The position numbers and the translations under genes were made by a program. A stretch of 64,000 nt of DNA from Clostridia bacterium (GTDB taxonomy: Bacteria; Bacillota; Clostridia; Oscillospirales; CAG-272), in contig CAAGGQ010000110.1 in assembly GCA_900769475.1 (NCBI GenBank), positions 1,173 through 65,172 of the forward strand, given 5' to 3'. Numbering within the stretch: position 1 is the first letter of the stretch; the number at the start of each line of letters is the position of its first letter. Shown one piece after another: positions 4,523 to 64,000 of this stretch. The notes below the pieces were generated by a model. The model made no database searches and had not been told where the DNA came from. It worked only from the letters and a program-made list of their open reading frames with translations.

Positions 4523-4525
4523 TTT

Positions 4526-6499: not shown

Positions 6500-7243
6500 T
6501 TACTCGCAATATTTCTCGGCAAACGCGATCAGAGGCGTGTTGTCCTCGATGCCGTGGGGATGGTGATCACAGCCCGGCTTGAGGATCTCCTCAAAGGGGA
6601 CGTCGCTCGCCCGATAGGCCCGGGCCAGGTGGGCGCCGTTCTCAAGGTAAGGCACCACCTTATCTGCGTCACCGCAAATCAGAAACACGGGAATCTTATG
6701 GTCAATCAAATGTTCGATATGATCAAAGGGCTGGTTGCGATCGTTGATGAGATCGGTCACGGTACGTCCCGTCTTCTCCACGAATTCGCGGTACATCTTC
6801 TCCCACTTGGGATTCTCGCTTCCAAGACCGATGCCGCAGGGACAGCTGAGCAGGTTCAGCACGGGAGCGTCCAGATAGAGCGCCGCCACGTACTCGGGGT
6901 ACATGGAGGCGAAATAGACTCCCTGCATACCACCGCAGCTCATGCCCACGGGCAAGCATTTTTGGGCAAATCCAAATTCCCTTTGCAAAAAATCGCAGAA
7001 GGGCTTCTTTGCCTCTATGTCCCCGGGATTGACCCAACGGGTGCTGTTTGCGATGTGTGCCAGGCCCCATCCGCGGGAGAGCATGTCCAGCTCAAAGGAC
7101 GGAAACGCGCCAAAATACTCGGTCTTAAGCATCCAACGACCGGCCGGATCCTTCTCTTTGGGAAGCACCACAATGGCCTTTCGTCCCTCAAAGAGGAAAT
7201 CCAAACGCTCGTAGCCGTTCCACTCACTCTTGATATATTCCAT
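6500..7243 (-). CDS. alpha/beta hydrolase (esterase-like)
   Basis: Nucleophile elbow GMSCGG (G-x-S-x-G), and a late DADKV...HHPHG consistent with an Asp/His triad. RBS GGAGGAG. Confidence 0.75.
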   Translation of the reverse strand: MEYIKSEWNGYERLDFLFEGRKAIVVLPKEKDPAGRWMLKTEYFGAFPSFELDMLSRGWGLAHIANSTRWVNPGDIEAKKPFCDFLQREFGFAQKCLPVGMSCGGMQGVYFASMYPEYVAALYLDAPVLNLLSCPCGIGLGSENPKWEKMYREFVEKTGRTVTDLINDRNQPFDHIEHLIDHKIPVFLICGDADKVVPYLENGAHLARAYRASDVPFEEILKPGCDHHPHGIEDNTPLIAFAEKYCE

Positions 7244-44018: not shown

Positions 44019-44071
44019 AAAACTCCTTCGCCGCTTTTTCTTTTGACCATATAGGCGCAAAAGAAAAAGCT
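44019..44071. repeat. repeat family C copy 2
   Basis: AAAACTCCTTCGCCGCTTTTTCTTTTGACCATATAGGCGCAAAAGAAAAAGCT is near-identical to 29278-29329. Confidence 0.65.
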
Positions 44072-44131
44072 TGGCCAAAACGTTCACTGCGTGGAAAATC
44101 TTTGTTTTATCCACTATTTGCAAAATACATC

Positions 44132-44160
44132 TTGATTTTTTCTCTGCTTTTTGCTATAAT
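44132..44160 (+). promoter_or_regulatory. promoter for metY-metA (TTGATT-17-TGcTATAAT)
   Basis: TTGATT at 44132-44137 and TATAAT at 44155-44160 with an upstream TG. Confidence 0.65.
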
Positions 44161-44223
44161 AAAAAAGTTAACATTATTTTTAAGCGATGCGATGTTTTGA
44201 AACCGCACCCAAGGAGGTTCATC

Positions 44224-45507
44224 ATGAGCAACTTTAAGATCGGAACAAAATGCGTTCAGGGTGGCTACCGCCCCGGTAACGGCGAACCCAGACAGATCCC
44301 CATCATTCAGAGCACCACCTTTAAGTACGATACCGGTGACGCCATGGGCAAGCTCTTTGATCTGGAAGCCAGCGGCTATTTCTATACCCGCCTGCAAAAC
44401 CCCACCAGCGACTCGGTGGCCGCAAAGATCTGCGAAATGGAAGGCGGAAGCGCCGCCATGCTCACCTCCTCGGGAATGGCTGCCTCCTTCCTGGCCGTGT
44501 TTAACATCTGCTCCTGCGGAGATCATTTCATCTCCTCCTCTGCCATCTACGGCGGCACCTACAACCTCTTCTCGGTCACCCTGAAGCGCATGGGCATTGA
44601 CGCGACTTTCGTTTCCCCCGATTGCACCGAGGAAGAGCTGCAGGCGGCCTTTCGTCCCAACACCAAGCTGGTCTTTGGCGAAACCATCGCCAACCCCGCC
44701 CTCAAGGTTCTGGACATTGAAAAATTCGCCAAGGTGGCTCACGCCAACGGCGTTCCGCTGATCATCGACAACACCTTCCCCACCCCCGTGGGCTGCCGTC
44801 CCTTTGAGTTCGGTGCCGACATCGTGACCCACGCCACCACCAAGTACATGGACGGTCACGGATCTGCCGTGGGCGGTGCTATTGTGGACTCCGGCAACTT
44901 TGACTGGATGGCCCACGCCGAGAAATTCCCCGGCCTCTGCACCCCTGACGAAAGCTACCATGGAATTACCTACGCCGAGCGTTTTGGAAAGGAAGGTGCC
45001 TACATTACCAAGGCCACCGCGCAGCTGATGCGTGACCTGGGTGTGACCCCCGCCCCCATGAACTCCTTCCTGCTCAACCTGGGCCTGGAGAGCCTGCACG
45101 TGCGCATGAAGCAGCATTGCGCCAACGGTCTGGCCGTTGCGCAGTACCTGGAAAACCATCCCAAGGTGGCCTGGGTCAACTATCCCGGTCTTGCCTCCTC
45201 CCCCGACTATGCACTGACGCAGAAGTATATGCCTCACGGCACCTGCGGTGTAGTCAGCTTTGGCGTGAAGGGTGGCAGAGAAGCTGCCTCCAAGTTCATG
45301 GAAAGCTTGAACATCATCGCCATTGAGACCCACGTGGCCGATGCTCGCTCCTGCTGCCTGCATCCCGCCACCACCACCCACCGCCAGCTCAGCGACGCCG
45401 ATCTTGTCGCCGCGGGTGTAGGTCCCGACCTCATTCGCGTTTCCCTGGGTCTGGAGGACACCGCTGACCTGATCGCCGACATCGAGCAGGCTCTGGCAAA
45501 CGTATAA
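44224..45507 (+). CDS. metY: O-acetylhomoserine aminocarboxypropyltransferase / sulfhydrylase
   Basis: Cys/Met-metabolism PLP family with GYRPGNGEPRQIPIIQSTTFKYD and ATTKYMDGHG (PLP Lys). ATG at 44224 follows AAGGAGG. Confidence 0.9.
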   Translation: MSNFKIGTKCVQGGYRPGNGEPRQIPIIQSTTFKYDTGDAMGKLFDLEASGYFYTRLQNPTSDSVAAKICEMEGGSAAMLTSSGMAASFLAVFNICSCGDHFISSSAIYGGTYNLFSVTLKRMGIDATFVSPDCTEEELQAAFRPNTKLVFGETIANPALKVLDIEKFAKVAHANGVPLIIDNTFPTPVGCRPFEFGADIVTHATTKYMDGHGSAVGGAIVDSGNFDWMAHAEKFPGLCTPDESYHGITYAERFGKEGAYITKATAQLMRDLGVTPAPMNSFLLNLGLESLHVRMKQHCANGLAVAQYLENHPKVAWVNYPGLASSPDYALTQKYMPHGTCGVVSFGVKGGREAASKFMESLNIIAIETHVADARSCCLHPATTTHRQLSDADLVAAGVGPDLIRVSLGLEDTADLIADIEQALANV

Positions 45508-45525: not shown

Positions 45526-46461
45526 ATGCCCATTAAGATCCCCAATGATCTGCCCGCCGTGCAGACCCTGGCCGATGAAAATATTTTTGTAATGACCGAG
45601 ACACGAGCCATCACCCAAGACATTCGTCCTCTGCGCATCGTGCTTCTCAATCTCATGCCCAAAAAGATCGAAACCGAAACCCAGATCTCCCGCATCCTGG
45701 GAAACACCCCCCTGCAGATCGAACTCACCCTCATTCGCACCAAAACTCATCAGTCCCAAAACACCGCCCAAGAGCATCTTCTTGCCTTCTACAAGACCTT
45801 TGACGACATCAAGGATCAAAAGTTTGACGGCATGATCATCACGGGTGCTCCCGTGGAGCTCAAGGAATTTGAGGACGTGGACTACTGGGAGGAGCTGTGC
45901 GAGATCATGGACTGGTCCAAGACCAACGTTCACAGCACCATGCACATCTGCTGGGGCGCTCAGGCGGGGCTTTACCATCACTTCGGAATCAAAAAATATC
46001 AGTTGGATAGGAAGCTCTTTGGCGTTTTCCCCCACAAGGCGGACTATGCCAAGTCCATGCTTCTGCGCGGCTTTGACGGCGTGTTCCACGTTCCTCATTC
46101 CCGCTACACCGCGGTCAAGCGCGAGGAGATCGAGGCCATTCCCGAGCTGCGTATTCTTGCCTCCTCCCAGGAGGCGGGCGTCCACATCGTGGGTGCCATT
46201 GGCGGCAGACAGTTCTTCATTATGGGTCACGCCGAGTACGATCCCCTGACGCTGGACGCCGAATACCGCCGCGATGCCGCCGCGGGACTTGGAACCCTGC
46301 CCCCCGAAAACTACTATCCCAACAACGATCCCTCCAAGGAGCCCATCATCACCTGGCGCGCCCACGGAAGTCTGCTCTTTATCAACTGGCTAAACTATTT
46401 CGTTTATCAGTCCACTCCCTACGATCTTAAGGACCTCAAATCCCAGGAAAAGGAACCCTGA
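45526..46461 (+). CDS. metA: homoserine O-acyltransferase (MetA family)
   Basis: [11 protein letters not shown]...ENIFVM...[13 protein letters not shown]-terminus, ICWGAQA catalytic Cys region and HSRY motif. Confidence 0.92.
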
Positions 46462-46486: not shown

Positions 46487-46515
46487 TTGACAAACGGTCA
46501 AAATTGTGATATGAT
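46487..46515 (+). promoter_or_regulatory. promoter of T-box leader 1 (TTGACA-17-TATGAT)
   Basis: TTGACA at 46487-46492 and TATGAT at 46510-46515. Confidence 0.6.
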
Positions 46516-46531
46516 AATGCCAATTTCCAAA

Positions 46532-46790
46532 GGCTATGACGAAGACGGCCGAAAAAGATCGTTTCCAGAGAACCGACGGTTGGTGCGAGTCGGTAACGGG
46601 ATTTTTCAAAGGCCCATCCCTTCCGAGCCGGAAGCCCGAAAGACTGCGAGTAGGCGCTCCCCGTGATTGCTGCGTAAATGCATAAGGATTGTTGGATCCT
46701 GAGTGACGGCGTCTGCCGTAATTTGAGTGGTACCGCGAGTGTTGATTCACCCGTCTCAAAGAAAATCTTTGAGACGGGTATTTTTATTTT
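46532..46790 (+). promoter_or_regulatory. T-box riboswitch leader 1; positional specifier AUC (Ile)
   Basis: The Stem I base has a K-turn (GGC-UAU-GA...GA-GCC), an AGAGA bulge and a GGUUGGUGCGAG distal loop. The T-box sequence AATTTGAGTGGTACCGCG is at about 46720-46737. Terminator CCCGTCTCAAAG..CTTTGAGACGGG plus a T-run is at 46749-46790. The codon at -4..-2 before the base helix is ATC (46616-46618). Confidence 0.8.
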
Positions 46791-46810
46791 CCAAGAGGAG
46801 GAAACAAACC

Positions 46811-49078
46811 ATGGCTACACTGGAAACCCAAAAACTGTTGGAGGTTGCCGGACGTATCCGCGAAATGCGCGAGATCTTTGGCTTTAGTCCCGAGGAAATG
46901 GCGCAAAAAACCGAGGTATCGGTGATCGAATATCAAGAATATGAAAAGGGACGCAAGGACTTCCCCTTTACCTTTATTCATAAATGTGCCCTGGCCTTTG
47001 GAGTGGGCATTACCGACCTCTTGGAGGGTCAGAGTGCCCGCCTGCATTCCTACACCATTACACGCAAGGGTGAAGGGCAGCAAACCGCCAAGGAGGACGG
47101 TATTGAGATCAAAAATCTGGCCCCCCTCTTCCGCAAAAAGATCGCAGAACCCTACTGGGTTCGCTATGAATTCAACGAAGAGCTGCAGAATAAGCCCATT
47201 CATCTGACCAAGCACTCGGGCCAGGAATTCGACTTTGTAATGAAAGGTCGCCTCAAGATCCAGATCGGTGACAACGTAGAATATTTGAGCGAGGGCGACA
47301 GCATCTACTACAACTCCTCCACCCCTCACGGTATGATCGCCGTGGACGGCAGCGAGTGCTTGTTCGTAGCCGTGGTCCTGCCCGGCGAAAACGAGGCCGA
47401 GGAGGTTCTGCGCGATACCATCATCTCTGCGCACTCGGGAGATAAGAAGCTGGTTTGCGCCGACTTTGTGGACACGGTGGAGGACGAGAACGGCTATCCT
47501 CTTTCCATCAACTTCAAAAACGAGGAACGCTTCAACTTTGCCTTTGACGTGGTGGATGCCTTGGCCAAGCGAGAGCCCAACAAGCTGGCCATGATCCACA
47601 TTGATCGGGAAAAGAACGAGCGCCGCTTCACCTTTAACGATATGAAGCGCCGCTCCAATCAGTGTGCCAACTACTTCAAGTCCCTGGGCATCAAGCAGGG
47701 GGATCGGGTCATGCTGGTGCTCAAGCGGCACTATCAGTTCTGGTTCGCGATCCTGGGTCTGCACAAGCTGGGTGCCATCGTCATCCCCGCCACCAACCAG
47801 CTCCAGGAGCACGACTTCGAGTACCGCTTCAATGCGGCCGACGTGAGCGCCATTCTCTGCACCGCCGACGGTGACGTGGCGCATCAGGTGGAGCTGGCCG
47901 CCGCCAAGTGCCCTTCCCTGAAAACCAAGATCCTGGTGGGCGGCGCTCGGGAGGGCTGGAAGTCCTTCGACGAGGAATTCTCCCTCTTCAGCACCCACTA
48001 CTACCGCACCGAGGATACCCCCTGCGGCAGCGATCTGATGCTCATGTTCTTTACCTCGGGCACCACGGGCTACCCCAAGATCGCCGCTCACAACTACAAA
48101 TATCCGCTGGGGCACTACGTCACCGCCAAATACTGGCATGGCGTCAGCTCGGGCGGTCTGCACTTCACCATCTCGGATACCGGCTGGGGCAAGGCTCTGT
48201 GGGGCAAGCTCTACGGCCAATGGCTCTGCGAGGGTGCGGTCTTTACCTATGACTTTGACCGCTTCGACGCCGCCGACATCCTTCCCATGTTCGCCAAATA
48301 CGGCATCACCACCTTCTGTGCTCCTCCCACCATGCTCCGCATGATGGTCAAGGAGGACATCTCCAAATACGATCTCTCCTCGGTGCGCCATATGACCACC
48401 GCGGGCGAGGCACTCAATCCCGAGGTCTACCGTCAATTTGAGGAAGCCACGGGTCTGCAAACCATGGAAGGCTTTGGACAAACCGAGCTGACCCTGACCA
48501 TTGCCAACCTGATGGGTGGCTCCCATAAGCTGGGCTCCATGGGCAAGCCGGTGCCGATCTATGACGTTGACATTGTGGATCCCGACGGCAATCCCGTGGC
48601 CGACGGTGAGGTGGGTGAGATCATTGTTCGCACCGATAAAAAGGTTCCCTGCGGACTCTTTGAGGGCTATTATCGCAATGAGGAAAAGACCCGCGAGGTA
48701 TGGCACGACGGCATGTACCACACCGGCGACACCGCATGGCGGGATGAGGACGGCTTCTATTGGTACGTGGGGCGCGTAGACGACGTGATCAAGTCCTCGG
48801 GCTACCGCATCGGTCCCTTCGAGATCGAGAGCGTGATCATGGAGCTTCCCTACGTGCTGGAATGCGGCGTTTCCGCCGCTCCCGACGAGCTCCGCGGTCA
48901 GGTGGTCAAGGCCAGCATCGTGCTCACCAAGGGTACTCAGCCCTCCGAGGAGCTGAAGAAGGAGATCCAAAACTATGTCAAGCAACACACGGCTCCCTAC
49001 AAGTATCCCCGTATCGTAGTCTTCCGGGATGAGCTGCCCAAAACCATCAGCGGAAAAATCCAACGCAACAAGCTGTAA
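46811..49078 (+). CDS. fusion protein: XRE-HTH + cupin N-terminal module / AMP-forming medium- or branched-chain acyl-CoA synthetase
   Basis: ATG at 46811 follows AGGAGG. Residues 1-~70 are an HTH_3 (FSPEEMAQKTEVSVIEYQEYEKGRKDFPFTFIHKCALAFGVGITDLLEG). Residues ~120-200 are a cupin (HSGQEFDFVMKG...GDSIYYNSSTPHGM). The ligase part has FFTSGTTGYPK, EGFGQTE, YHTGD, GRVDDVIKSSGYRIGPFEIES and SGKIQRNKL. Confidence 0.88.
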   Translation: MATLETQKLLEVAGRIREMREIFGFSPEEMAQKTEVSVIEYQEYEKGRKDFPFTFIHKCALAFGVGITDLLEGQSARLHSYTITRKGEGQQTAKEDGIEIKNLAPLFRKKIAEPYWVRYEFNEELQNKPIHLTKHSGQEFDFVMKGRLKIQIGDNVEYLSEGDSIYYNSSTPHGMIAVDGSECLFVAVVLPGENEAEEVLRDTIISAHSGDKKLVCADFVDTVEDENGYPLSINFKNEERFNFAFDVVDALAKREPNKLAMIHIDREKNERRFTFNDMKRRSNQCANYFKSLGIKQGDRVMLVLKRHYQFWFAILGLHKLGAIVIPATNQLQEHDFEYRFNAADVSAILCTADGDVAHQVELAAAKCPSLKTKILVGGAREGWKSFDEEFSLFSTHYYRTEDTPCGSDLMLMFFTSGTTGYPKIAAHNYKYPLGHYVTAKYWHGVSSGGLHFTISDTGWGKALWGKLYGQWLCEGAVFTYDFDRFDAADILPMFAKYGITTFCAPPTMLRMMVKEDISKYDLSSVRHMTTAGEALNPEVYRQFEEATGLQTMEGFGQTELTLTIANLMGGSHKLGSMGKPVPIYDVDIVDPDGNPVADGEVGEIIVRTDKKVPCGLFEGYYRNEEKTREVWHDGMYHTGDTAWRDEDGFYWYVGRVDDVIKSSGYRIGPFEIESVIMELPYVLECGVSAAPDELRGQVVKASIVLTKGTQPSEELKKEIQNYVKQHTAPYKYPRIVVFRDELPKTISGKIQRNKL

Positions 49079-49118: not shown

Positions 49119-49148
49119 TTGACAAATCCCTTTGTTTGTGCTATAATA
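49119..49148 (+). promoter_or_regulatory. promoter of T-box leader 2 (TTGACA-18-TATAAT)
   Basis: TTGACA at 49119-49124 and TATAAT at 49143-49148. Confidence 0.6.
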
Positions 49149-49164
49149 ACACATATTTTAAAAT

Positions 49165-49436
49165 AGCTTTGACGAAGAGTGATACGGGAGCGTGCCCTGC
49201 AGAGAGATGACGGTTGGTGCAAGCTCATCAAAAGCATTCCCCGTGTTTGTAGCTTCTGAGCTGAGAGGAAGAACGCCTATGGCAAGTAGAACCTCTCCGT
49301 GATTGCTGCGTAAAGGCATACGGATTGTACTGATCCTGAGTGGCGGCGTCCTGCCGCAATTTGAGTGGTACCGCGGGTCAACCTGAATTATCAGGCGCTC
49401 GTCTCAAAGTCACATGCTTTGGGGCGAGCGCTTTTT
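49165..49436 (+). promoter_or_regulatory. T-box riboswitch leader 2; positional specifier GUA (Val)
   Basis: K-turn base (AGC-UUU-GA...GA-GCU), AGAGAG bulge and GGUUGGUGCAAG distal loop. The specifier-loop 3' side is GUUUGUAG with GTA at 49249-49251 followed by a purine. T-box AATTTGAGTGGTACCGCG is at about 49358-49376. Terminator GCGCTCGTCTCAAAG..CTTTGGGGCGAGCGC plus TTTTTT is at 49395-49436. Confidence 0.82.
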
Positions 49437-49458
49437 TCGTCCCGGAAAAGGAGTACAT

Positions 49459-51750
49459 ATGGAACAGATCACAGGTCTTGATTACAAAATTCAAGAAATG
49501 GCGCGACGCATTCGGGAATTGCGCGACATCGAGGGCTTTACCCCCGAGGAGATGGCGCAAAAGACCAACGTTTCGGTAGCCGAATACCTGGATTGCGAAA
49601 ACGGCAGAAGCGATTTGAACTTTGCCTTTATCTACCGCTGCGCCATGGCGCTCAAGGTCAACGTGACCGATATCATCGAGGGCTACAGCCCCAAGCTCCG
49701 CTCCTACACCGTTACCCGCAGCGGCAGCGGCCAGGAGATCGCCAAGGCTCACGGAATGACCTACTACAATATGGCCTACGACTTTAAAAACCGTATTGCC
49801 GAGCCTCTGTTCGTTAAGATCGATTACAACGAGAACAGCGCCCATAAGGACATCGAGCTCACCACCCACACGGGTCAGGAGTGTGACATCGTGATCGACG
49901 GTCAGCTCATGGTGCAGATCGGCGAGCACCGGGAGGTGCTGGGTCCCGGGGACAGCATTTATTACAACAGTGAAACGCCCCACGGCATGATCGCCACGGG
50001 CGGTCGGGATTGCACCTTCTACGCCATCGTTCTCAATCCCTCGGGCGAGCCCATTGCCGAGCTCATGCCCACCCAAGCGGTTACCAACGTCAAGGCTGTG
50101 GCCAAGAAGGACGAGAAGGATCGCATCTGGCACAACTACATCGACGTGGTGGAGAGCGAGACCGGACATCCCACCTCCATCACCTTCAAGAACACCGAGC
50201 ACTTTAACTTCGCCTTTGACCTGGTGGACGCCCTGGCCGATCGGGAACCCGAAAAACTGGCCATGCTCCACATTGCCAAGGACAAGACCGAACGCCGCTT
50301 CACCTTCAAGGATATGAAGCGGGAATCCAACCGCTGTGCCAACTACTTTAAGGCCATTGGCATCAAGCGGGGAGATCGGGTCATGCTTATCCTCAAGCGG
50401 CACTACCAGTTCTGGTTCGCCATGCTGGGTCTGCACAAGCTGGGCGCCATCGCCATTCCCGCGGTCAACCAGCTTCAGGAGCACGATCTGGAATACCGCT
50501 TCCAATCCGCCGGAGTTTCGGCCATCGTTTGCACCGCCGACGATGACGTGGCGCATCAGGTGGATCTGGCGGCACGGACCTGCCCCGGTCTCACCAATAA
50601 GATCCTGGTAAACGGCACGCGGGAGGGCTGGAGATGCTTTGACGAGGAATACACCATGTACAGCACCCATTACAACCGCCCTGCGGACGCTCCCGGCGGC
50701 GAGGATCTGATGCTGATGTATTTCACCTCGGGCACCTCAGGCTATCCCAAGATCGCGGCACACAACTACAAATACGTGCTGGGCCACTTCCACACCGCCA
50801 AGTACTGGCACACCGTGGATCCCGACGGCCTGCACTTTACCATTTCGGATACCGGCTGGGCCAAGGCCATGTGGGGCAAGCTCTACGGCCAATGGCTCTG
50901 CGAGGCAGCCACCTTTGTTTACGACTTTGACCGATTTGATGCCGCCGACATCCTTCCAATGTTCGCAAAGCATCACATCACCACCTTCTGCGCACCTCCC
51001 ACCATGCTCCGCATGATGGTAAAGCAGGATATTTCCAAGTACGACCTCTCCTCGGTCCAGCACATGACCACCGCAGGCGAGGCACTGAACCCCGAGGTCT
51101 ACCGTCAATTTGAAAAGCTGACGGGTCTGCAGATCCACGAGGGCTTTGGACAAAGCGAGAGCACCATGATCATTGGTAACCTGGTGGGTGCCCCCCACAA
51201 GATTGGCTCCATGGGCAAGCCGGCTCCCACCTACGACGTTTCCCTGGTGGATGCCGACGGCAATCCCGTCAAGGCCAGCGAGGTGGGTGAGATCGTGGTC
51301 AACATCAAGAACGGGATCCCCTGCGGTCTTGCCGTTGGCTACTATGGTGACGAAGAAAAGACCGCCGAAACCTGGAAGGACGGCCTCTACCACACCGGCG
51401 ACACCGCTTGGCGTGACGAGGACGGCTACTTCTGGTACGTGGGCCGCGTAGACGACGTGATCAAGTCCTCGGGCTACCGCATCGGTCCCTTTGAGATCGA
51501 GAGCGTGATCATGGAGCTTCCTTACGTGCTGGAGTGCGGCGTTTCGGCCGTGCCCGACGAGGTAAGAGGCCAGATCGTAAAGGCCAGCATCGTGCTGGTC
51601 GATGGCACCGAGCCCTCCGAGGATCTGAAGAAGGAAATTCAAACCTACGTCAAAGAAAAGACCGCGCCCTACAAGTACCCCCGTATCGTGGTCTTCCGCG
51701 AGAGCCTTCCCAAAACGGCCAGCGGCAAGATCCAGCGGAACAAGCTGTAA
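49459..51750 (+). CDS. fusion protein: XRE-HTH + cupin N-terminal module / AMP-forming acyl-CoA synthetase (paralog of 46811..49078)
   Basis: ATG at 49459 follows AAAAGGAG. Same architecture and the same ligase motifs (YFTSGTSGYPK, EGFGQSE, YHTGD, GRVDDVIKSSGYRIGPFEIES, SGKIQRNKL). The ligase domain is clearly paralogous to the upstream gene. Confidence 0.88.
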   Translation: MEQITGLDYKIQEMARRIRELRDIEGFTPEEMAQKTNVSVAEYLDCENGRSDLNFAFIYRCAMALKVNVTDIIEGYSPKLRSYTVTRSGSGQEIAKAHGMTYYNMAYDFKNRIAEPLFVKIDYNENSAHKDIELTTHTGQECDIVIDGQLMVQIGEHREVLGPGDSIYYNSETPHGMIATGGRDCTFYAIVLNPSGEPIAELMPTQAVTNVKAVAKKDEKDRIWHNYIDVVESETGHPTSITFKNTEHFNFAFDLVDALADREPEKLAMLHIAKDKTERRFTFKDMKRESNRCANYFKAIGIKRGDRVMLILKRHYQFWFAMLGLHKLGAIAIPAVNQLQEHDLEYRFQSAGVSAIVCTADDDVAHQVDLAARTCPGLTNKILVNGTREGWRCFDEEYTMYSTHYNRPADAPGGEDLMLMYFTSGTSGYPKIAAHNYKYVLGHFHTAKYWHTVDPDGLHFTISDTGWAKAMWGKLYGQWLCEAATFVYDFDRFDAADILPMFAKHHITTFCAPPTMLRMMVKQDISKYDLSSVQHMTTAGEALNPEVYRQFEKLTGLQIHEGFGQSESTMIIGNLVGAPHKIGSMGKPAPTYDVSLVDADGNPVKASEVGEIVVNIKNGIPCGLAVGYYGDEEKTAETWKDGLYHTGDTAWRDEDGYFWYVGRVDDVIKSSGYRIGPFEIESVIMELPYVLECGVSAVPDEVRGQIVKASIVLVDGTEPSEDLKKEIQTYVKEKTAPYKYPRIVVFRESLPKTASGKIQRNKL

Positions 51751-51762: not shown

Positions 51763-52428
51763 ATGAATACAAGCAAGCGCATTACCCTTCTCTGCGGTCA
51801 CTACGGCAGCGGAAAGACCAACGTGGCGGTCAATCTCGCCCTGCGGGAACGAACCCTCTACGAAAAGGTTGCGGTGGCCGATTTGGACATCGTAAACCCC
51901 TATTTCCGTACTAAGGACAGCAGCGCGGAGTTTGAGGCGGCAGGCATTCGCCTGATCTGCTCGGACTACGCCAACACCAACGTGGACATCCCCGCTCTCC
52001 CCCCGGATCTCTACGCCATTACCGACGACAAGAGCATTCGCGTGCTCATCGACGTGGGCGGCGATGATCGGGGTGCCCTTGCCCTGGGACGTCTGGCTCC
52101 CTCCATTTTGGAGGAGGACAGCTATGAGATGCTCATGGTCATCAACGGCTACCGTCCCCTGACCCGGGACGCTGCCTCCACCCTGGAGGTATTGCAGGAG
52201 ATCGAGGCCGCCTGCGGAATCCCATTCACGGGCCTGGTCAACAACTCCAACCTGGGAAACGACACCACCGCCGATGACGTGCTCGCCTCTTTGGCCTACG
52301 CCGAGGAGGTCTCCCGCATCACGGGGCTTCCCGTGGTCATGACCGCCTTCCACGAGGATCTGCTCCCCGCGCTTGGGGATAAGGTTCCTCATCCCTTCCC
52401 TTTGGCACTGCAAAAGAAAATCATATAA
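51763..52428 (+). CDS. P-loop NTPase (MinD/ParA/CooC-like SIMIBI class), unknown role
   Basis: Deviant Walker A LLCGHYGSGKTN and Walker B-like VLIDVGGDD. RBS AAAGGAG. 12-nt gap after the ligase gene with no terminator. Confidence 0.7.
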   Translation: MNTSKRITLLCGHYGSGKTNVAVNLALRERTLYEKVAVADLDIVNPYFRTKDSSAEFEAAGIRLICSDYANTNVDIPALPPDLYAITDDKSIRVLIDVGGDDRGALALGRLAPSILEEDSYEMLMVINGYRPLTRDAASTLEVLQEIEAACGIPFTGLVNNSNLGNDTTADDVLASLAYAEEVSRITGLPVVMTAFHEDLLPALGDKVPHPFPLALQKKII

Positions 52429-52473: not shown

Positions 52474-52680
52474 ATGGCAAAATTAACCTTTAAGACCGAC
52501 AACTGCAAGGGTTGCGGCCTGTGCGTGGATGCCTGCCCGAAGAAGATCCTTCGCCTGGCCTCCAACAAGATCAACAAAAAAGGACATCATCCGGTAGAAA
52601 TGACAGATGAATCGGCTTGCATTGGCTGTGCCTTCTGCGCCACCATGTGCCCCGATTGTATTATTAAGGTAGAGAGGTGA
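52474..52680 (+). CDS. 2-oxoacid:ferredoxin oxidoreductase delta subunit (2x[4Fe-4S] ferredoxin)
   Basis: 68 aa with CKGCGLCVDACP and CIGCAFCATMCP cluster motifs. Confidence 0.9.
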   Translation: MAKLTFKTDNCKGCGLCVDACPKKILRLASNKINKKGHHPVEMTDESACIGCAFCATMCPDCIIKVER

Positions 52681-52685
52681 TCAAC

Positions 52686-53741
52686 ATGGCAGAAAAAGTA
52701 TTGATGAAGGGCAACGAGGCCATTGCCGAGGCCGCCATCCTTGCGGGATGCCGCCACTACTTTGGTTACCCCATTACCCCCCAAACCGAAATTGCCGCCT
52801 ATATGGCAAAGAAAATGCCCAAGATCGGCGGTACCTTCCTCCAGGCCGAGAGTGAGATCGCGGCCATCAACATGGTCTATGGCGTGGCCTCCACGGGTCT
52901 GCGCGTTATGACTTCCTCCTCCTCTCCCGGAATCTCCCTGAAAAGCGAAGGCCTTTCCTATCTGGCCGGTGCTGATCTGCCCTCTTTGGTTGTAAACGTA
53001 CAGCGCGGCGGCCCGGGTCTGGGCGGTATTCAGCCCAGCCAGTCCGACTACTTCCAGGCCACTCGCGCGGCAGGACACGGCGACTTCCACATGATCGTTC
53101 TGGCTCCCGCCTCGGTGCAGGAGATGGCAGAGCTGACCGTGAAGGGCTTTGAGCTGGCCGACACCTACCGCATGACCTCTATGATCCTGGCCGACGGTAC
53201 CATGGGTCAGATGATGGAGCCCGTGGAGCTGAACTTTGACGTGAAGCCCATGCCCGAAAAGCCCTGGGCCACCACCGGCACCAAGCTGGAGCGCAAGCAC
53301 AACATCGTCAACTCCCTCTCCCTGGTTCCCGAGGAGCTGGAGCAGCTCAACTTTGCCCGCTTTGAGAGATATCGTCAGATCGAAGAAAACGAGCCCATGT
53401 GGGAAGAGTACATGATGGAGGACGCCGAGATCTGCATTGCCGCCTTTGGCATTGCCTCCCGCGTTTCCAAGAACGCCATCAACGAGGCCCGCAAGCAGGG
53501 CATTAAGGTGGGCCTGATCCGTCCCATCACCCTTTGGCCCTTCCCCAAAAAGGCATTCCAAAAGGCCGCTGAGCAGGTGAAGGCATTCATCTCCGTGGAG
53601 CTTTCCATGGGTCAGATGATCGACGACGTCCGCCTGGCCAGCGAATGTAAGGTACCCGTTACTCTGTGCAACCGTGCGGGCGGTATGATTCCCTCCCCCG
53701 AGCAGGTACTGGCAGAAATTAAAAAGGTTGCAGGAAAGTGA
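52686..53741 (+). CDS. 2-oxoacid:ferredoxin oxidoreductase alpha subunit (VorB/KorA-like)
   Basis: KGNEAIAEAAILAGCRHYFGYPITPQTEI N-terminus is typical of OFOR alpha subunits. ATG at 52686 follows GAGAGGTGA. Confidence 0.88.
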   Translation: MAEKVLMKGNEAIAEAAILAGCRHYFGYPITPQTEIAAYMAKKMPKIGGTFLQAESEIAAINMVYGVASTGLRVMTSSSSPGISLKSEGLSYLAGADLPSLVVNVQRGGPGLGGIQPSQSDYFQATRAAGHGDFHMIVLAPASVQEMAELTVKGFELADTYRMTSMILADGTMGQMMEPVELNFDVKPMPEKPWATTGTKLERKHNIVNSLSLVPEELEQLNFARFERYRQIEENEPMWEEYMMEDAEICIAAFGIASRVSKNAINEARKQGIKVGLIRPITLWPFPKKAFQKAAEQVKAFISVELSMGQMIDDVRLASECKVPVTLCNRAGGMIPSPEQVLAEIKKVAGK

Positions 53742-53752
53742 GGCATGGAACC

Positions 53753-54508
53753 ATGGTAGTATTTGATAAACCCCACGCATTGGCAGATATGCCCTTGCAT
53801 TATTGCCCCGGTTGCACCCACGGCATCATCCACCGCCTGGTGGCAGAGGTCATGGACGAGCTGGGAATTGAAGGAAAGACCATTGGCATCGCCCCCGTGG
53901 GATGCTCGGTAATGGCCTACAATTATTTCAACTGTGACATGATCGAGGCGGCCCACGGACGGGCTCCCGCCATTGCCACCGGCGTAAAGCGCGCCAATCC
54001 CGAGAACATCGTGTTCACCTATCAGGGTGACGGCGACCTGGCCTCCATTGGTATGGCAGAAACGGTGCACTCCGCCGCCAGAAACGAGAACATCACCGTG
54101 ATCTTCGTAAACAATGCCATTTACGGTATGACCGGCGGTCAGATGGCTCCCACCTCCCTCCCCGGACAGATCACCCAGACCTCTCCCTACGGCCGTGACG
54201 TAAATCATTGCGGCTATCCCATCCGCGTTTGCGAAATGCTCTCTCAGCTGGAAAGCCCTCAGTACCTGGAGCGCGTGACTGTGAACAGTGTAAAGAACAT
54301 CAAGAACGCCAAGAAGGCGATCAAGAAGGCCTTCCAGAACCAGATCGACGGCAAGGGCTTCTCCCTGGTCGAGGTTCTCTCCACCTGCCCCACCAACTGG
54401 GGTATGACACCTCAGGCGGCGCTGAAGTGGATCGATGATAAGATGATCCCCTACTATCCTCTGGGCGTTTACAAGGACAAATCCGCACAACAGGAGGAAA
54501 GCAAATGA
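53753..54508 (+). CDS. 2-oxoacid:ferredoxin oxidoreductase beta subunit (TPP-binding)
   Basis: HYCPGCTHGI Cys motif and the GDGD...N TPP-binding region (YQGDGDLASIG...NNAIYGMTGGQ). A start at 53738 (GTG) is the alternative. Confidence 0.88.
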   Translation: MVVFDKPHALADMPLHYCPGCTHGIIHRLVAEVMDELGIEGKTIGIAPVGCSVMAYNYFNCDMIEAAHGRAPAIATGVKRANPENIVFTYQGDGDLASIGMAETVHSAARNENITVIFVNNAIYGMTGGQMAPTSLPGQITQTSPYGRDVNHCGYPIRVCEMLSQLESPQYLERVTVNSVKNIKNAKKAIKKAFQNQIDGKGFSLVEVLSTCPTNWGMTPQAALKWIDDKMIPYYPLGVYKDKSAQQEESK

Positions 54509-55038
54509 GCACCCAAAACTATCTCCTCTCGGGCTTTGGCGGACAGGGCATCCTGTTCTCCGGCAAATTCCTGGCCTACAAGGGCCTGACCGCGGGTAAG
54601 CAGGTGAGCTGGCTCCCCTCCTACGGTCCCGAAATGCGCGGCGGTACCGCCAGCTGCAGCGTGATCGTGAGCGACGAGCCCGTGGGCTCTCCCATCGTAT
54701 CCAATCCCGACATTCTGGTGGCCATGAACCTGCCCTCCTTTGATAAGTTTGAGGCCAGCGTGGTGCCCGGCGGCATGATCTTTGCCGATTCCACCCTCAT
54801 TGAGCGGAAATCTGAGCGCACCGACGTAACCGTGCACTACATTCCCGCAACCCAGCTGGCCAGCGACAACGGCTTTCCCACTCTGGCCAACATGATCATT
54901 GTTGGTAAGATCCTCAAGGAGCTGGGCGAATTCGACGAGGACGCCCTGCGCGTAGCCCTTGGCAAGGTCATCTCCGCCAAGCGTGCCGACATGCTGGAAA
55001 CCAACCTCAAGGCCATGAAGATCGGCGCGGAATATTAA
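54505..55038 (+). CDS. 2-oxoacid:ferredoxin oxidoreductase gamma subunit
   Basis: LLSGFGGQGILFSGKFLA N-terminus and SYGPEMRGGTA motif. ATGA overlap with the beta subunit. Confidence 0.88.
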   Translation: MSTQNYLLSGFGGQGILFSGKFLAYKGLTAGKQVSWLPSYGPEMRGGTASCSVIVSDEPVGSPIVSNPDILVAMNLPSFDKFEASVVPGGMIFADSTLIERKSERTDVTVHYIPATQLASDNGFPTLANMIIVGKILKELGEFDEDALRVALGKVISAKRADMLETNLKAMKIGAEY

Positions 55039-55276: not shown

Positions 55277-56338
55277 ATGGATATCAAGATCATCAAAACA
55301 ACCACTCCCAAGGAAAAGCCCGATGCCTCTACGCTGGGCTTTGGTAAGATCTTTACCGATCATATGTTCATCATGGATTATGAAGCAGGAAAGGGCTGGC
55401 ACGATGCTCGCATCGTTCCCTTTGAGAACATCTCCCTTCACCCCGCCTCCACCGTTCTGCACTACGGCTCCGAGATCTTTGAGGGTCTGAAGGCCTACCG
55501 CCGTGCCGACGGCAAGGTGCAGCTCTTCCGTCCCATGGAGAACGTTCGCCGTCTGAATTCCTCGGCCGACCGTCTCTGTCTGCCCCTGCTCCCCGAGGAT
55601 ATGGCTATGGAAGCCCTCACCGCCTTCGTGCGCACCGAAGAGGCCTGGACCCCCTCTGCTCCCGGCACCTCCCTCTATCTCCGTCCCTTCCTGTTTGGAA
55701 ATGACGAGAGCCTGGGCGTGCACACGGTGCAAAACGCCAAGTTTGTAATCATCGCCTCCCCCGTGGGAAGCTACTACAAGGAAGGCATCAACCCTGTAAA
55801 GATCATGATCGAGGACGAGGACGTGCGTGCCGTAAAGGGTGGCACCGGCTACACCAAGTGCGGCGGTAACTACGCCGCCAGCAACCGTGCCGGCGAGCGC
55901 GCCGCACAAAAGGGCTACTCTCAGGTGCTCTGGCTGGACGGTGTACACAGAAAGTACATTGAGGAAGTAGGCGCCATGAACGTCATGTTCAAGATCGCGG
56001 GCGAGATCGTGACTCCCATGCTTTCGGGCTCAATTCTTCCCGGCATTACCAGAAAATCCTGCATTGAGATCCTTCAGAAAGAGGGCTACAAGGTCAGCGA
56101 GCGCCTGCTCAGCATCGACGAGCTGGAACAGGCTATGGCTGACGGCACCCTGGAAGAAGCCTGGGGCACCGGCACCGCAGCCGTTGTTTCTCCCATTGGT
56201 GAGCTTTGCTACAAGGATCAAAAGTACACCGTTGGCGGCGGCAAGATCGGAGAGGTTACCCAGCACCTGTACGATACCCTCACCGGAATTCAGTGGGGCA
56301 AAACCGAGGACACCTTTGGTTGGACCATGCCTCTTTGA
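55277..56338 (+). CDS. ilvE: branched-chain amino acid aminotransferase
   Basis: Class IV aminotransferase with FEGLKAYR, GTGYTKCGGNYAAS and ILPGITR motifs. 353 aa. Confidence 0.93.
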   Translation: MDIKIIKTTTPKEKPDASTLGFGKIFTDHMFIMDYEAGKGWHDARIVPFENISLHPASTVLHYGSEIFEGLKAYRRADGKVQLFRPMENVRRLNSSADRLCLPLLPEDMAMEALTAFVRTEEAWTPSAPGTSLYLRPFLFGNDESLGVHTVQNAKFVIIASPVGSYYKEGINPVKIMIEDEDVRAVKGGTGYTKCGGNYAASNRAGERAAQKGYSQVLWLDGVHRKYIEEVGAMNVMFKIAGEIVTPMLSGSILPGITRKSCIEILQKEGYKVSERLLSIDELEQAMADGTLEEAWGTGTAAVVSPIGELCYKDQKYTVGGGKIGEVTQHLYDTLTGIQWGKTEDTFGWTMPL

Positions 56339-58077: not shown

Positions 58078-58097
58078 ACACCATATTTTATTTTAAA

Positions 58098-58365
58098 TGC
58101 ATTGATGGAATTATTCTCTATCCCAAGTTCACCCCAGAGAGTCGGCGGAGGGTGCGAGCCGACGTGGACCGACAGAGAAGTCTCGTTCCGGAGCAGAGTT
58201 GCCCAACCCATATGGCAGTAAGCGACTACGGCGTGCCCCGTTACCAAGGCAAAGGGCTTGTCAGAGCCCCAATGAGTTGACCGTAGTTTTACGGTAAACA
58301 GGGTGGTACCGCGAAGATTGTTCGTCCCTGAAGCTGATGTATCAGCTTCAGGGACTGTTTGTTTT
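58098..58365 (+). promoter_or_regulatory. T-box riboswitch leader 3; specifier CUC (Leu)
   Basis: K-turn base (UGC-AUU-GA...GA-GCA), AGAGAG bulge and GGAGGGUGCGAG distal loop. The specifier-loop 3' side is AGUCUCG with CTC at 58182-58184 followed by G. T-box AAACAGGGTGGTACCGCG is at about 58297-58313. Terminator GTCCCTGAAGCTGAT..ATCAGCTTCAGGGAC plus TGTTTGTTTT is at 58324-58365. Confidence 0.85.
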
Positions 58366-58416
58366 CTATACCCCCGCGCTCTGTACGCCTCGCAAACAGA
58401 AAGGAAAACGATCCAA

Positions 58417-59802
58417 ATGAAACACATTCAAATTGCAGACACCACACTTTGCAGAGAGGGCAAGGCCTTTAGCTTTAAGGAAAAGCTGGAGATTGCCCGT
58501 CAGCTGGAAAAGCTGAACGTAGATGTGATCGAGCTCCCCGAGATCCATACGCCTAAGACCGACATCCTCTTTGTGCGTACCGCCTCCTCCTTTGTAAAGC
58601 AAAGCACTCTCTCGGTCGCTGCCGGAAAGACCCCGGAAAGCATTTCCAACGCCTTGGCCGCGTTAGGCAATACCGCCAATCCTTGCGTGCGCATTGAGCT
58701 GCCCGTATCCCCCGTGGGCATGGAATACATCTGTCACAAAAAGCCGCCCAAGATGCTGGAGTGGATCACGCAGGCTGTCCACACCGCCAAGAAAGGCTGT
58801 TCCAACGTGGAATTTTGCGCCGTGGATGCCACCCGCGCCGAAAAGGACTTTTTGAAGGAGGCCCTTCTGGCCGCACAAGTGGCAGGTGCCACCTCCATTT
58901 CGATCTGCGATAGCGCCGCCGAAATGCTCCCCGACGATTTTGCCACCTTCGTGGAGGAGATCCTCTCTTGGGTGGATTTGCCCGTGGGTGTTCGTTGCTC
59001 CAACCTCAACGGCCTCTCGGTGGCCGCCTCCATTCTTTCGGTGCGTCACGGAGCCTCCTGCGTAAAGACCAACGTAGACGGTGCCGACGCTCCGCTGGAG
59101 GCCTTTTGCACCATGCTCCGCAACTGCGGCAACAGCTATGGCTTCACCTCCTCTCTGCGTTACACCGAGCTCTACCGCATTGTAAAACAGATCCTGCGCA
59201 TTACCGATGCGGCCTCCAAGAGCGACAAGATTCTTGCTGTGCAGGGCAGCGCCAACTCGGACATCCACCTGGATCGCAACGATTCCCAGGATGCAGTCAT
59301 TGCCGCCGTGGCCAAGCTGGGCTATGATCTCTCCGAGGAGGATCAAAAGAACGTGTACGAGGAATTCCTCCGCGTGGCCGAAAAGAAGAAGGTGGGCTCC
59401 AAGGAGCTGGACGCCATCATTGCCACCGCCGCCCTCCAAGTCCCCTCCACCTATCGCTTGGAGAACTATGTGATCAACACAGGCAGTGTTCTCAGCGCCA
59501 GCGCCCAGATCATAATGACCCGCGGCGAGGAGACCGTGCAGGGTATTTGCGTAGGAGACGGCCCCATTGACGCCGCCTTCCGCGCCATGGAGCAGATCCT
59601 GGGCCGCCATTACGAGTTGGATGATTTTCAAATCCAGGCTGTGACCGAGGGTAAGGAAGCCATGGGCTCGGCAGTGGTCAAGCTTCGTCGGGACGGCAAG
59701 CTCTACTCGGGCAACGGTCTTTCCACCGACATCATCGGTGCCAGCATCCGCGCCTATCTCAACGCCGTGAACAAAATCATCTATGAGGAGGAACAGGCAT
59801 GA
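58417..59802 (+). CDS. 2-isopropylmalate-synthase-like protein with degenerate catalytic motifs and an intact C-terminal LeuA regulatory/dimerisation domain
   Basis: The HMGL-like barrel is recognisable (IQIADTTL..KEKLEIARQLEKLNVDVIE). However, DTTLRDGEQ is replaced by DTTLCREGK and HxHND by RCSNLN, and GIGERAGN is missing. The C-terminal YELDDFQIQAVTEGKEAMGSAVVKLRRDGKLYSGNGLSTDIIGASIRAYLNAVNK is a well-conserved LeuA_dimer domain. Confidence 0.75.
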   Translation: MKHIQIADTTLCREGKAFSFKEKLEIARQLEKLNVDVIELPEIHTPKTDILFVRTASSFVKQSTLSVAAGKTPESISNALAALGNTANPCVRIELPVSPVGMEYICHKKPPKMLEWITQAVHTAKKGCSNVEFCAVDATRAEKDFLKEALLAAQVAGATSISICDSAAEMLPDDFATFVEEILSWVDLPVGVRCSNLNGLSVAASILSVRHGASCVKTNVDGADAPLEAFCTMLRNCGNSYGFTSSLRYTELYRIVKQILRITDAASKSDKILAVQGSANSDIHLDRNDSQDAVIAAVAKLGYDLSEEDQKNVYEEFLRVAEKKKVGSKELDAIIATAALQVPSTYRLENYVINTGSVLSASAQIIMTRGEETVQGICVGDGPIDAAFRAMEQILGRHYELDDFQIQAVTEGKEAMGSAVVKLRRDGKLYSGNGLSTDIIGASIRAYLNAVNKIIYEEEQA

Positions 59803-62324: not shown

Positions 62325-62333
62325 TTAAGACCT

Positions 62334-62399
62334 CGGGGGAAGGAGAACACTTCTTTCAAGAAGTGTTCTCCTTCCCCCGAACCCCTACCCTCTTTCCGG
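62334..62399 (+). repeat. repeat family D copy 2 (GGGGGAAGG hairpin + ACCCCTACCCT tail)
   Basis: CGGGGGAAGGAGAACACTTC-tttcaa-GAAGTGTTCTCCTTCCCCCGAACCCCTACCCTCTTTCCGG. It shows the same pattern as the minus strand of 19650-19703. Confidence 0.6.
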
Positions 62400-62466
62400 A
62401 ACTTCTCATAAAAAAGAAATAGCGTTGCATTGAAAAACTGTTTCAAAGCAACGCTATTTTGTTGTT

Positions 62467-63657: not shown

Positions 63658-63961
63658 AATTCTCTCCTTTATAAAATAAAAAATACGCCAACTGAAATCA
63701 GCGCATAAAAGCCACACATACTTCAAGCGTTGTTGCACTATTCGGTTTTATTTGACACATTTATTATACCACAGTTGTTCTTTTATGTCAATAATTACTC
63801 GTTTTTTTCTATTCTCAAAAAGAAACCTCGCAACTTCTCTCCAAAAAACAGGGCTGCACGCAAATTGCGTACAGCCCTTTATACGGACGCCGGAAGCATG
63901 AACCCGGCGGTGGTTTCATCATAGCAGTATGTATGATAAATTCCGTGTTTCGGAAAAAGAA

Positions 63962-64000
63962 TTACTTCGCGTAGTCTACAGCGCGCGTCTCTCGGATCAG
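63962..64000 (-). CDS. 3' end of an unidentified gene continuing beyond the window
   Basis: The reverse strand reads ...LIRETRAVDYAK* with stop at 63964-63962. A hairpin AGGGCTGCACGCAA-ATTGCGTACAGCCCT (about 63851-63879) lies downstream. Too short to identify. Confidence 0.35.
   Translation of the reverse strand: MIRETRAVDYAK

Follow-up and report, generated by a model that had tools for sequence, protein, structure and literature searches.

A helix-turn-helix-cupin module joined to T-box-controlled acyl-CoA synthetases in Clostridia: a candidate accessory domain of the enzyme

Two tandem genes encode ligases with an N-terminal HTH-cupin module

A 64,000-nucleotide stretch from a Clostridia bacterium (GenBank assembly GCA_900769475.1, contig CAAGGQ010000110.1, positions 1,173 to 65,172 of the forward strand; hereafter, the window) carries two tandem genes, A and B. 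Each encodes an AMP-forming acyl-coenzyme A (acyl-CoA) synthetase, here called the ligase, that is preceded in the same polypeptide by a helix-turn-helix (HTH) domain and a cupin domain. The HTH-cupin module has the architecture of a small-molecule-sensing repressor. Here, a computational analysis of the module is reported, from which it appears more likely that the module works on the enzyme rather than on DNA.

Open reading frame (ORF) A (46811 to 49078, plus strand) encodes 755 amino acids (aa), and ORF B (49459 to 51750, plus strand) encodes 763 aa. The likely start codons are the ATG at 46811, with the ribosome binding site GAGGAGG 7 to 13 nucleotides (nt) upstream, and the ATG at 49459, with the ribosome binding site AAGGAG; each lies just past a terminator hairpin. 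Longer, mechanically called ORFs from 46727 and 49414 were rejected, as their starts would fall inside the T-box terminators. Both proteins share the Pfam layout HTH_3/HTH_19, Cupin_2, AMP-binding, and AMP-binding_C (about aa 15 to 73, 132 to 190, 252 to 621, and 671 to 757 over the two proteins). They are 69% identical over the full length, including the N-terminal module, which by itself is 52 to 53% identical between them. The initial annotation, made from the sequence alone, had described an HTH and a cupin in each protein (46811 to 47420 and 49459 to about 50060) and two paralogous copies with full-length ligases, and Pfam and structure prediction bear it out on these points.

An AlphaFold2 (AF2) model of aa 1 to 210 of protein A, built on a multiple sequence alignment (MSA) of 41 sequences, reached a predicted local distance difference test (pLDDT) score of 85.9. 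It comprises five helices (aa 4 to 23, 27 to 34, 38 to 45, 53 to 63, and 67 to 72), followed by a cupin barrel. The linker between module and ligase, originally put at about 15 residues, is actually about 25 to 30 aa long, as the cupin ends near aa 192 and homology to the ligase structure 3ETC in the PDB begins at aa 217. In protein A, the confidence of the AF2 model is low at aa 199 to 210, and the spacing from the PHG motif to the FNFAFD motif ranges from 67 to 78 residues across fused ORFs. The coordinates of these and the other features are collected in Table 1.

Table 1. Features of the module-ligase genes and of the genes that follow them in the window
Feature	Coordinates	Strand	Basis
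Promoter A: -35 TTGACA (46487-46492), 17-nt spacer, -10 TATGAT (46510-46515)	46487..46515	+	Read from sequence
T-box leader A, specifier AUC (Ile), terminator hairpin and U-run to ~46795	46527..46795	+	Rfam RF00230 match 46527-46761, 84 bits, E 5e-18
A, HTH-like domain, XRE-type five-helix, aa 1-75	46811..47035	+	Pfam HTH_3/HTH_19 at aa 15-73 (HTH_3 25.9 bits, cutoff 23); AF2
A, cupin barrel, aa 88-192	47072..47386	+	Pfam Cupin_2 at aa 134-188 (40.4 bits, cutoff 27.2); AF2; Foldseek; invariant residues
A, inter-domain linker, poorly conserved, aa 193-232	47387..47506	+	Identity 37% within A-type, 51% within B-type, 26% between paralogs
A, Macs/MbcS-type AMP-forming acyl-CoA synthetase, aa 233-755	47507..49078	+	Pfam AMP-binding at aa 252-621, AMP-binding_C at aa 671-749; 3ETC; NCBIfam MbcS
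Promoter B: -35 TTGACA (49119-49124), 17-nt spacer, -10 TATAAT (49142-49147)	49119..49147	+	Read from sequence
T-box leader B, specifier GUA (Val), terminator	49160..49445	+	Rfam RF00230 match 49160-49409, 71.8 bits, E 7e-15
B, HTH-cupin module, second copy, aa 1-194	49459..50040	+	Pfam (HTH_3 24.3 bits, Cupin_2 44.8 bits)
B, linker and Macs/MbcS-type ligase	50041..51750	+	Pfam (the same two ligase domains as in A); NCBIfam; pocket signature
P-loop NTPase, 221 aa, GSGKT Walker A	51763..52428	+	Weak MinD/NUBPL/CbiA matches, no family cutoff passed
4Fe-4S ferredoxin, 68 aa, 2x[4Fe-4S]	52474..52680	+	Pfam Fer4
2-Oxoisovalerate:ferredoxin oxidoreductase, VorB alpha	52677..53741	+	Pfam POR_N/PFOR_II
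2-Oxoisovalerate:ferredoxin oxidoreductase, beta	53738..54508	+	Pfam TPP_enzyme_C
2-Oxoisovalerate:ferredoxin oxidoreductase, gamma	54505..55038	+	Pfam POR
Branched-chain amino acid aminotransferase (BCAT)	55277..56338	+	Pfam Aminotran_4; NCBIfam BCAT 478 bits (cutoff 307)

The ligase part belongs with branched-chain acyl-CoA synthetases and lies behind T-boxes

The ligase part matches 3ETC with an E value of 4e-188 over 537 residues. The Pfam scores for AMP-binding and AMP-binding_C were 224 and 77 bits in A and 208 and 77 bits in B, and the ANL core motifs TSGTTGYPK, GFGQTE, YHTGD, GRVDDVIKSSGYRIGPFEIE, and PKTISGKIQR are seen in the translations. Among the NCBIfam models, MbcS was the best match (430 bits for A and 427 bits for B, against an equivalog cutoff of 850); thus, the window proteins form a related subfamily and are not MbcS equivalogs. 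The protein in 3ETC, MacsMa, prefers 2-methylbutyrate, has a critical Trp259 in its acyl pocket, and lets go acyl-AMP formed from non-preferred substrates (PMC10455477), and the MbcS of Staphylococcus aureus prefers isobutyrate and 2-methylbutyrate (PMC13584741). The crystallized MacsMa chain has 580 residues, and its alignment covers nothing but the ligase part; a cupin or HTH partner is nowhere mentioned in the MbcS paper (PMC13584741). This suggests that the module is accessory to catalysis.

The few ligase positions that tell A-type from B-type orthologs cluster in two motifs, at DTGW-G/A-KA-L/M-W and after GFGQ-T/S-E. The resulting pocket signature is DTGW-G-KALW with GFGQ-T-E in A and DTGW-A-KAMW with GFGQ-S-E in B. 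MacsMa carries the A-type Gly, in that its DSGW-G-K aligns with DTGW-G-K of A, the Trp of this motif being the pocket Trp and putative counterpart of Trp259. Each gene also has a sigma-70-type promoter of its own and a T-box leader, so that the T-box layer assumed at the outset is real. Both leaders score under the Rfam gathering score of 93, yet the E values are low (Table 1), the full model length is matched, and terminator hairpins with U-runs are present. The specifier was ATC in 37 of 37 A-type leaders and GTA or the synonymous GTC in B-type leaders.

The fusion is genuine and widespread

Two full-length protein searches gave at least 8000 matches each, from which 120 rows each (743 to 757 aa) were inspected. 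All listed matches carry Cupin_2, AMP-binding, and AMP-binding_C, and they come from many independent assemblies. When one genome per species was scanned with a five-sequence alignment of the module, it was found in at least 597 species genomes of Oscillospiraceae and relatives. The locus counts that follow rest on the best 80 loci from named genomes among these, which were gut and rumen Oscillospiraceae, Acutalibacteraceae, Ruminococcaceae, and Eubacteriales metagenome-assembled genomes (MAGs). The closest of these 80, Oscillospiraceae SIG668, is 91% identical.

Wherever the contig extends far enough, module and ligase form a single reading frame in these loci, and 122 such ORFs, of 736 to 775 aa, are complete. 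These independent ORFs rule out a frameshift or assembly artefact, and the description of the proteins as fusions and not as separate ORFs stands. Complete ORFs were seen in 72 loci; 50 of these have both paralogs, and A invariably comes before B. In databases, the fused proteins are merely named "AMP-binding protein" or "cupin domain-containing protein". Within each paralog type, the identity was 0.77 for the cupin, 0.76 for the N-terminal domain of the ligase, 0.66 to 0.71 for the HTH, and 0.37 to 0.51 for the linker, a pattern indicating that the module is under purifying selection.

One interrupted copy was found among about 125. It is a B-type copy in an Acutalibacteraceae MAG (locus L078, 3345 to 5630), with an in-frame stop about 100 codons into the module and the ligase part carried on by another ORF. 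A pseudogene, an error in sequencing, or a recent split could each account for it.

The module also occurs as a separate gene directly upstream of the ligase gene

An exhaustive search with the module alone (2299 cluster representatives) yielded the fusions of about 760 aa together with many stand-alone proteins of about 185 to 195 aa, which are homologous over the whole module at 32 to 47% identity. The genomic context was checked for nine module homologs of 37 to 51% identity, namely, P0272, P0271, P0289, P0390, P0396, P0301, P0185, and P0173 (185 to 198 aa) and a fusion of (d)CMP kinase (CMK) and module, P0242. In all of these except P0173, a 545- to 556-aa AMP-binding ligase lies directly downstream on the same strand, with a junction between -8 nt (overlap) and +21 nt; the other neighbors are unrelated between loci. 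The split ligases that were checked are 54 to 60% identical to the ligase of A. Because eight of nine module homologs sit directly upstream of a ligase of the same type, the fused and split forms are one conserved two-part unit, of which the window proteins are the fused form.

The split pairs in loci L089 and L090 sit behind T-boxes that pass the gathering score, with a Val specifier (GTC) in L089 and an Ile specifier (ATC) in L090. Thus, the small module protein would be induced together with the ligase by amino acid starvation and would not repress it. Locus L089 (logan:SRR24991623_97, 1631 to 7242) holds both forms, facing apart: a fused unit of 764 aa on the minus strand and a split unit of a 188-aa module and a 551-aa ligase on the plus strand. 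It resembles a natural halfway stage between the two arrangements. In these units, which represent independent lineages, the pocket signature tracks the T-box specifier. The L090 split unit (Ile) and the L089 fused unit (Ile) have W-G and Q-T-E, and the L089 split unit (Val) has W-A and Q-S-E.

The junctions of -8 to +21 nt would make fusion mechanistically easy, and the module might on this account be vestigial, the functionless remnant of a neighboring regulator gene that lost its stop codon and so became joined to the ligase. However, the module is conserved as strongly as the catalytic domain within each paralog, it is kept in at least 597 species and in both paralogs, and a single copy among about 125 is interrupted. 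A vestigial module is therefore highly improbable.

Some further observations were made at the split loci. In L097 (4001 to 6898), the HTH-cupin module forms the C-terminal part of a 401-aa protein whose annotation is (d)CMP kinase, and the gene for a 556-aa AMP-binding ligase begins 21 nt further on; either the module has a second type of fusion or the gene call has merged two genes. A fluoride riboswitch lies 5' of a Na/H-exchanger gene beside one split pair (L001, 4598 to 4680), and a lysine riboswitch lies near another (L088, 1885 to 2056). Both appear unrelated to the module-ligase unit.

The HTH-like domain keeps the fold and has an atypical recognition helix

The residues that make the HTH fold are invariant. 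Among them are R15 and E45, which form the Arg-Glu pair known from XRE domains, together with Y41, G47, and the hydrophobic core; R20 is invariant as well, and R15, R20, Y41, E45, and G47 stay the same or nearly so in fused and split forms alike. The first turn of helix 3 reads V-I-E in protein A, and its family consensus, taken over 125 fused and 106 stand-alone module copies, is V/L-E-E. Glu or Asp occupies position 39 in 92 of the 125 fused copies (74%) and position 40 in 112 (90%). At the same place, comparators have QQS (434 repressor), THSA (PuuR of Escherichia coli), TRQA (an XRE protein of the same clade), and SPQA (another XRE protein in the window). The polar or basic DNA-contact residues expected in the recognition helix of an XRE-cupin regulator were lacking, with no conserved basic or polar donor. 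Thus, the HTH, initially judged intact, is so in its fold residues but not in the first turn of helix 3, where V/L-E-E stands against QQS, TRQ, and SPQ in DNA-binding relatives. The proposed PuuR-type affiliation did not hold as family membership, since the two proteins scored 14.3 and 16.4 bits with the NCBIfam PuuR model NF007408 (cutoff, 211) and share 16% identity with E. coli PuuR; the likeness is one of architecture only.

The net charge of the HTH was also considered as an argument against DNA binding. In a first comparison with six classical XRE domains, it was -5.2 and -5.9 versus +2.8. The argument fell when a same-clade XRE control had the same charge as protein A (-3).

The promoters of 32 A-type and 34 B-type orthologous loci were then compared. 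In A-type promoters, the layout TTGACA-17-TGnTATAAT and an A-rich upstream tract are conserved, and neither a conserved spacer or flank position nor a position-conserved palindrome was found among the 32. In B-type promoters, the layout is likewise conserved, and the spacer contains a weak, non-palindromic caaa.tt just upstream of the extended -10 element; the spacer of B in the window (49125 to 49141) has ctttgtttgtg in its place. Inverted repeats in the promoters had a mean arm of 5.5 versus 5.0 in shuffles, a difference confounded by A/T tracts. At the promoters of A and B, which the initial annotation had named for DNA-binding assays, no conserved palindrome is present.

These results bear on a rival reading, according to which the fused protein is a trigger enzyme and autorepressor. 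As a dimer, it would sit on an operator, at either its own promoter or a different one, and come off when the cupin or the ligase bound substrate, placing control of transcriptional initiation atop the T-box. The layout is indeed that of XRE-cupin local repressors, which control adjacent metabolic genes (PMC7901475). However, in the split form the module gene invariably comes first and runs in the direction of the ligase gene (junctions of -8 to +21 nt), in two cases behind a T-box, so that the putative repressor would be made only once the operon was already induced. The fold residues of the HTH are conserved under purifying selection (0.66 to 0.71 within-paralog identity), and its best PDB sequence matches are the DNA binders DdrO and 434 repressor, yet its helix 3 starts with hydrophobic-Glu-Glu and PuuR membership fails. 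The slight excess of inverted repeats over shuffles would fit an operator but is explainable by A/T tracts; the weak caaa.tt in B-type spacers speaks for the reading, and the 32 A-type promoters speak against it, having no position-conserved palindrome although helix 3 is conserved. We consider such an autorepressor unlikely. It is also quite unlikely that the protein is a one-component trigger enzyme that binds DNA despite its odd helix 3 and is switched by the catalytic or ligand state of the ligase. If a trigger enzyme did operate, branched fatty acids would be read at the promoter and tRNA charging at the T-box, which would amount to a two-input AND gate on the operon.

The cupin site is invariant and structurally close to cupin enzymes

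The 2-His-1-Glu positions of the cupin (H135, E139, and H173) are invariant across fused and split forms, as are E113, D163, and S169; Q138, D141, Y166, and C183 are nearly invariant. In a Foldseek search with the module model, the top match was HppE (1ZZ9, E 5e-14, TM score 0.53), followed by the uncharacterized structure 1Y9Q, an HTH_3-family regulator (E 1e-13), by Psf4, HEPD, and MPnS (to E 1e-9), and then by single-domain cupins, with TM scores of about 0.5.

The module could, on this evidence, be a catalytic cupin, that is, a metal-dependent enzyme or a domain for substrate handling (capture or presentation of the carboxylate or processing of acyl-adenylate or acyl-CoA), in the manner of HppE, HEPD, and MPnS. 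Its top structural neighbors are HppE, Psf4, HEPD, and MPnS (E 5e-14 to 1e-9), but the TM score is only about 0.5 and the similarity to HppE in a phmmer search is marginal (E 0.19 to 0.7). The 2-His-1-Glu residues never vary, but the regulator PuuR retains the triad columns as well. Proofreading or hand-off is conceivable, given the release of acyl-AMP by MacsMa (PMC10455477), whereas no additional reaction is called for by the pathway. O2-dependent Fe(II) chemistry is implausible in hosts that are presumably strict anaerobes. A catalytic role therefore seems very unlikely.

Positions that cleanly separate A-type from B-type orthologs were also counted. Of the 23 found, the module (the first 192 aa) holds 19 and the ligase (523 aa) the other 4, which is a 14-fold enrichment in the module (Fisher p 2e-8). 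A cupin pocket that reads Ile versus Val as a universal code was considered and rejected, since the discriminating residues do not follow the specifier in split forms. These residues could equally reflect insulation of the interfaces of the two paralogs. Such insulation after duplication is what would be expected if the module were a purely structural or oligomerization domain that dimerizes or stabilizes the ligase, perhaps keeping A and B from mixed oligomers, with no ligand sensing. The enriched positions are lineage specific, many of the differences in the HTH are conservative core swaps (L/I, M/L, and F/L), and cupins and XRE-cupin proteins are typically dimers (PMC7901475), all of which agrees with such a role. 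On the other hand, if the module were no more than a scaffold, there would be no call for the invariant polar cluster that fused and split forms alike have at the classical metal/ligand positions of cupins, and MacsMa was stable enough without the module to give crystals. A purely structural module is rather unlikely in our view.

A charge-based fit of an acidic HTH to a basic surface of the ligase was also rejected, as ligases that have a partner do not differ in domain charge from those that lack one.

The module as a putative accessory domain or subunit of the ligase

The reading that we favor is that the HTH-cupin module serves the ligase as an accessory or regulatory domain (or subunit), at the level of the protein, and is not a repressor. 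It draws on the co-translated or fused organization, the co-induction by T-boxes, the persistence of the fusion, and the atypical recognition helix, and we place about even confidence in it. The module would have descended from an XRE-cupin regulator and would now act at the protein level on the ligase. A metal, a small molecule, or both would be bound by the cupin at the invariant H135, E139, H173, E113, and D163; the HTH-like domain would be structural or a contact surface, as in HppE; and by way of the flexible linker the module would reach the ligase and tune the ATP-consuming first step. The architecture and its conservation, the equivalence of split and fused forms, the T-box specificities, the pocket signatures, and the invariant site are direct observations, and from them we infer that the module does not bind DNA and that it binds a ligand and affects catalysis. 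The cognate amino acid is an attractive guess for this ligand, but a doubtful one with no specific support.

Several observations weigh against this reading. The sequence evidence against DNA binding is moderate. The "EE" of helix 2, tried as another argument against DNA binding, is simply the HTH_3 consensus. As neither it nor the net charge is diagnostic, only the first turn of helix 3 is left as a sequence argument, and DdrO, one of the two best PDB matches, binds DNA with an atypical helix 3 (SVPY). The HTH fold is under selection, and XRE-cupin units are known in which the first gene encodes an autorepressor (PMC7901475). In addition, one of the nine module homologs, P0173, has no adjoining ligase. 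The metal triad does not discriminate between enzyme and regulator, being conserved in the same columns of PuuR, and the 19 discriminating positions of the module do not track the Ile or Val specifier in split forms and are lineage specific. Finally, a full-length AF2 model from a shallow MSA (pLDDT 61, predicted TM score 0.35) is too low in confidence to show contact between module and ligase.

The initial annotation had offered two functions for the module. The ligand-sensing domain on the ligase fits better, given the eight of nine split cassettes and the T-box co-induction, whereas the DNA-binding trigger enzyme is disfavored. The structure prediction proposed at the same time gave a confident fold for the module (pLDDT 85.9) but not the domain interface.

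The operon predicts a salvage route from branched fatty acids to Ile and Val

Judging from the Ile and Val specifiers and from the pocket signature that tracks them, A is induced by uncharged tRNA-Ile and has 2-methylbutyrate as its most likely substrate, and B is induced by uncharged tRNA-Val and has isobutyrate as its most likely substrate. The acyl-CoAs would be reductively carboxylated by the co-transcribed, ferredoxin-dependent VorB-type oxidoreductase and then transaminated by BCAT to yield Ile and Val. The alpha subunit passes the NCBIfam VorB model (542 bits; cutoff, 399). Thus arranged, A and B together with VorB and BCAT most likely constitute a salvage route from branched fatty acids to branched-chain amino acids. 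The route from branched fatty acids to Ile and Val by reductive carboxylation is classically described in rumen bacteria, and requirements for branched-chain volatile fatty acids have long been known in rumen nutrition. The 221-aa P-loop protein is kept between ligase B and the ferredoxin/VorB genes in most orthologous loci, at 50 to 79% identity, and it may help the oxidoreductase to mature or supply it with iron-sulfur clusters.

Gene A is immediately preceded by genes for a pyridoxal phosphate enzyme of the O-acetylhomoserine sulfhydrylase type (44071 to 45507) and a homoserine O-acyltransferase (45526 to 46461), which mark the region as an amino acid biosynthesis gene cluster. Farther downstream (region 58093 to 62324), a third T-box (58093 to 58332; 114.5 bits, which passes the gathering score) has a specifier that reads CTC (Leu). 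It precedes a divergent LeuA-like gene (58303 to 59802), which scores 275 bits with isopropylmalate synthase models, under their cutoffs. After this gene comes an 841-aa fusion of a xylose-isomerase-like TIM barrel (AP_endonuc_2) and an AMP-binding ligase (PRK12583, 684 bits; cutoff, 832). By its predicted domains, it adds to this neighborhood another type of ligase with an N-terminal extension under T-box control, from a subfamily other than that of A and B. At the window edge, positions 62001 to 64000 have a G+C content of 0.378 versus about 0.55 elsewhere, and a 423-aa minus-strand ORF there (62467 to 63738) matches no family; this may be foreign or mobile DNA.

Implications and comparison with known systems

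If the module acts on the enzyme, a clade now annotated "XRE family transcriptional regulator" or "cupin domain-containing protein" would consist of accessory subunits or domains of ligases. This clade spans at least 597 species, many of them abundant gut and rumen Oscillospiraceae. A transcription factor architecture would then have been exapted for enzyme control, and counting HTH-cupin genes as regulators would mislead regulon prediction in these genomes. In addition, the operon offers a genetic handle on the conversion of isobutyrate to valine and of 2-methylbutyrate to isoleucine in gut and rumen bacteria, with Val and Ile T-boxes gating the ligase paralogs separately. The pocket signature (W-G with Q-T-E versus W-A with Q-S-E) is a testable predictor of substrate. 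A full-text search of the literature found no description of an HTH-cupin partner or fusion of acyl-CoA synthetases. The architecture itself is already abundant in databases under generic names; what is new is the equivalence of the split and fused forms of module and ligase.

Like the XRE-cupin regulators PuuR, ErfA, PsdR, and PauR, which combine an N-terminal XRE HTH with a C-terminal cupin (Trouillon et al. 2021, PMC7901475), the stand-alone relatives found here are about 185 to 195 aa long, lie beside a functionally linked metabolic gene, and keep the H/E/H residues of the cupin. Unlike in those regulators, the module here is fused to an enzyme or is the co-directional, near-overlapping first gene, sometimes behind a T-box; its helix 3 has an acidic/hydrophobic first turn, and no conserved palindromic operator was found. 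The ligase part resembles MacsMa (3ETC) and S. aureus MbcS, two characterized enzymes that prefer 2-methylbutyrate and/or isobutyrate (PMC10455477, PMC13584741). Its role here would probably be amino acid salvage under T-box control and not the supply of fatty acid primers.

HppE, Psf4, HEPD, and MPnS also join an HTH-like helical domain to a 2-His-1-Glu cupin, and they act as enzymes and not as DNA-binding proteins. In them, the HTH-like domain is not known to contact DNA but contributes to the active site and the oligomer. They are, however, O2-dependent Fe(II) enzymes of antibiotic pathways, and nothing in the present gene context calls for that chemistry. With trigger enzymes such as PutA, BirA, and NadR, the proteins share an enzyme and a DNA-binding-type domain in one polypeptide. 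For the trigger enzymes known to us, DNA binding has been demonstrated and the DNA-binding surface is canonical, whereas the recognition helix here is atypical and no operator was found at the promoters of A and B.

A further comparison can be made with domains that exert feedback control in branched-chain amino acid synthesis, namely, the ACT domains of IlvN and IlvA and the C-terminal domain of LeuA. The fold is unrelated to theirs, the paralog-specific residues of the module do not track Ile and Val across lineages, and ligand binding and inhibition here are putative. The analogy is functional only: in each case, a ligand-binding domain, a putative one here, sits on the first committed, energy-costly enzyme of a route that is also under RNA-level control.

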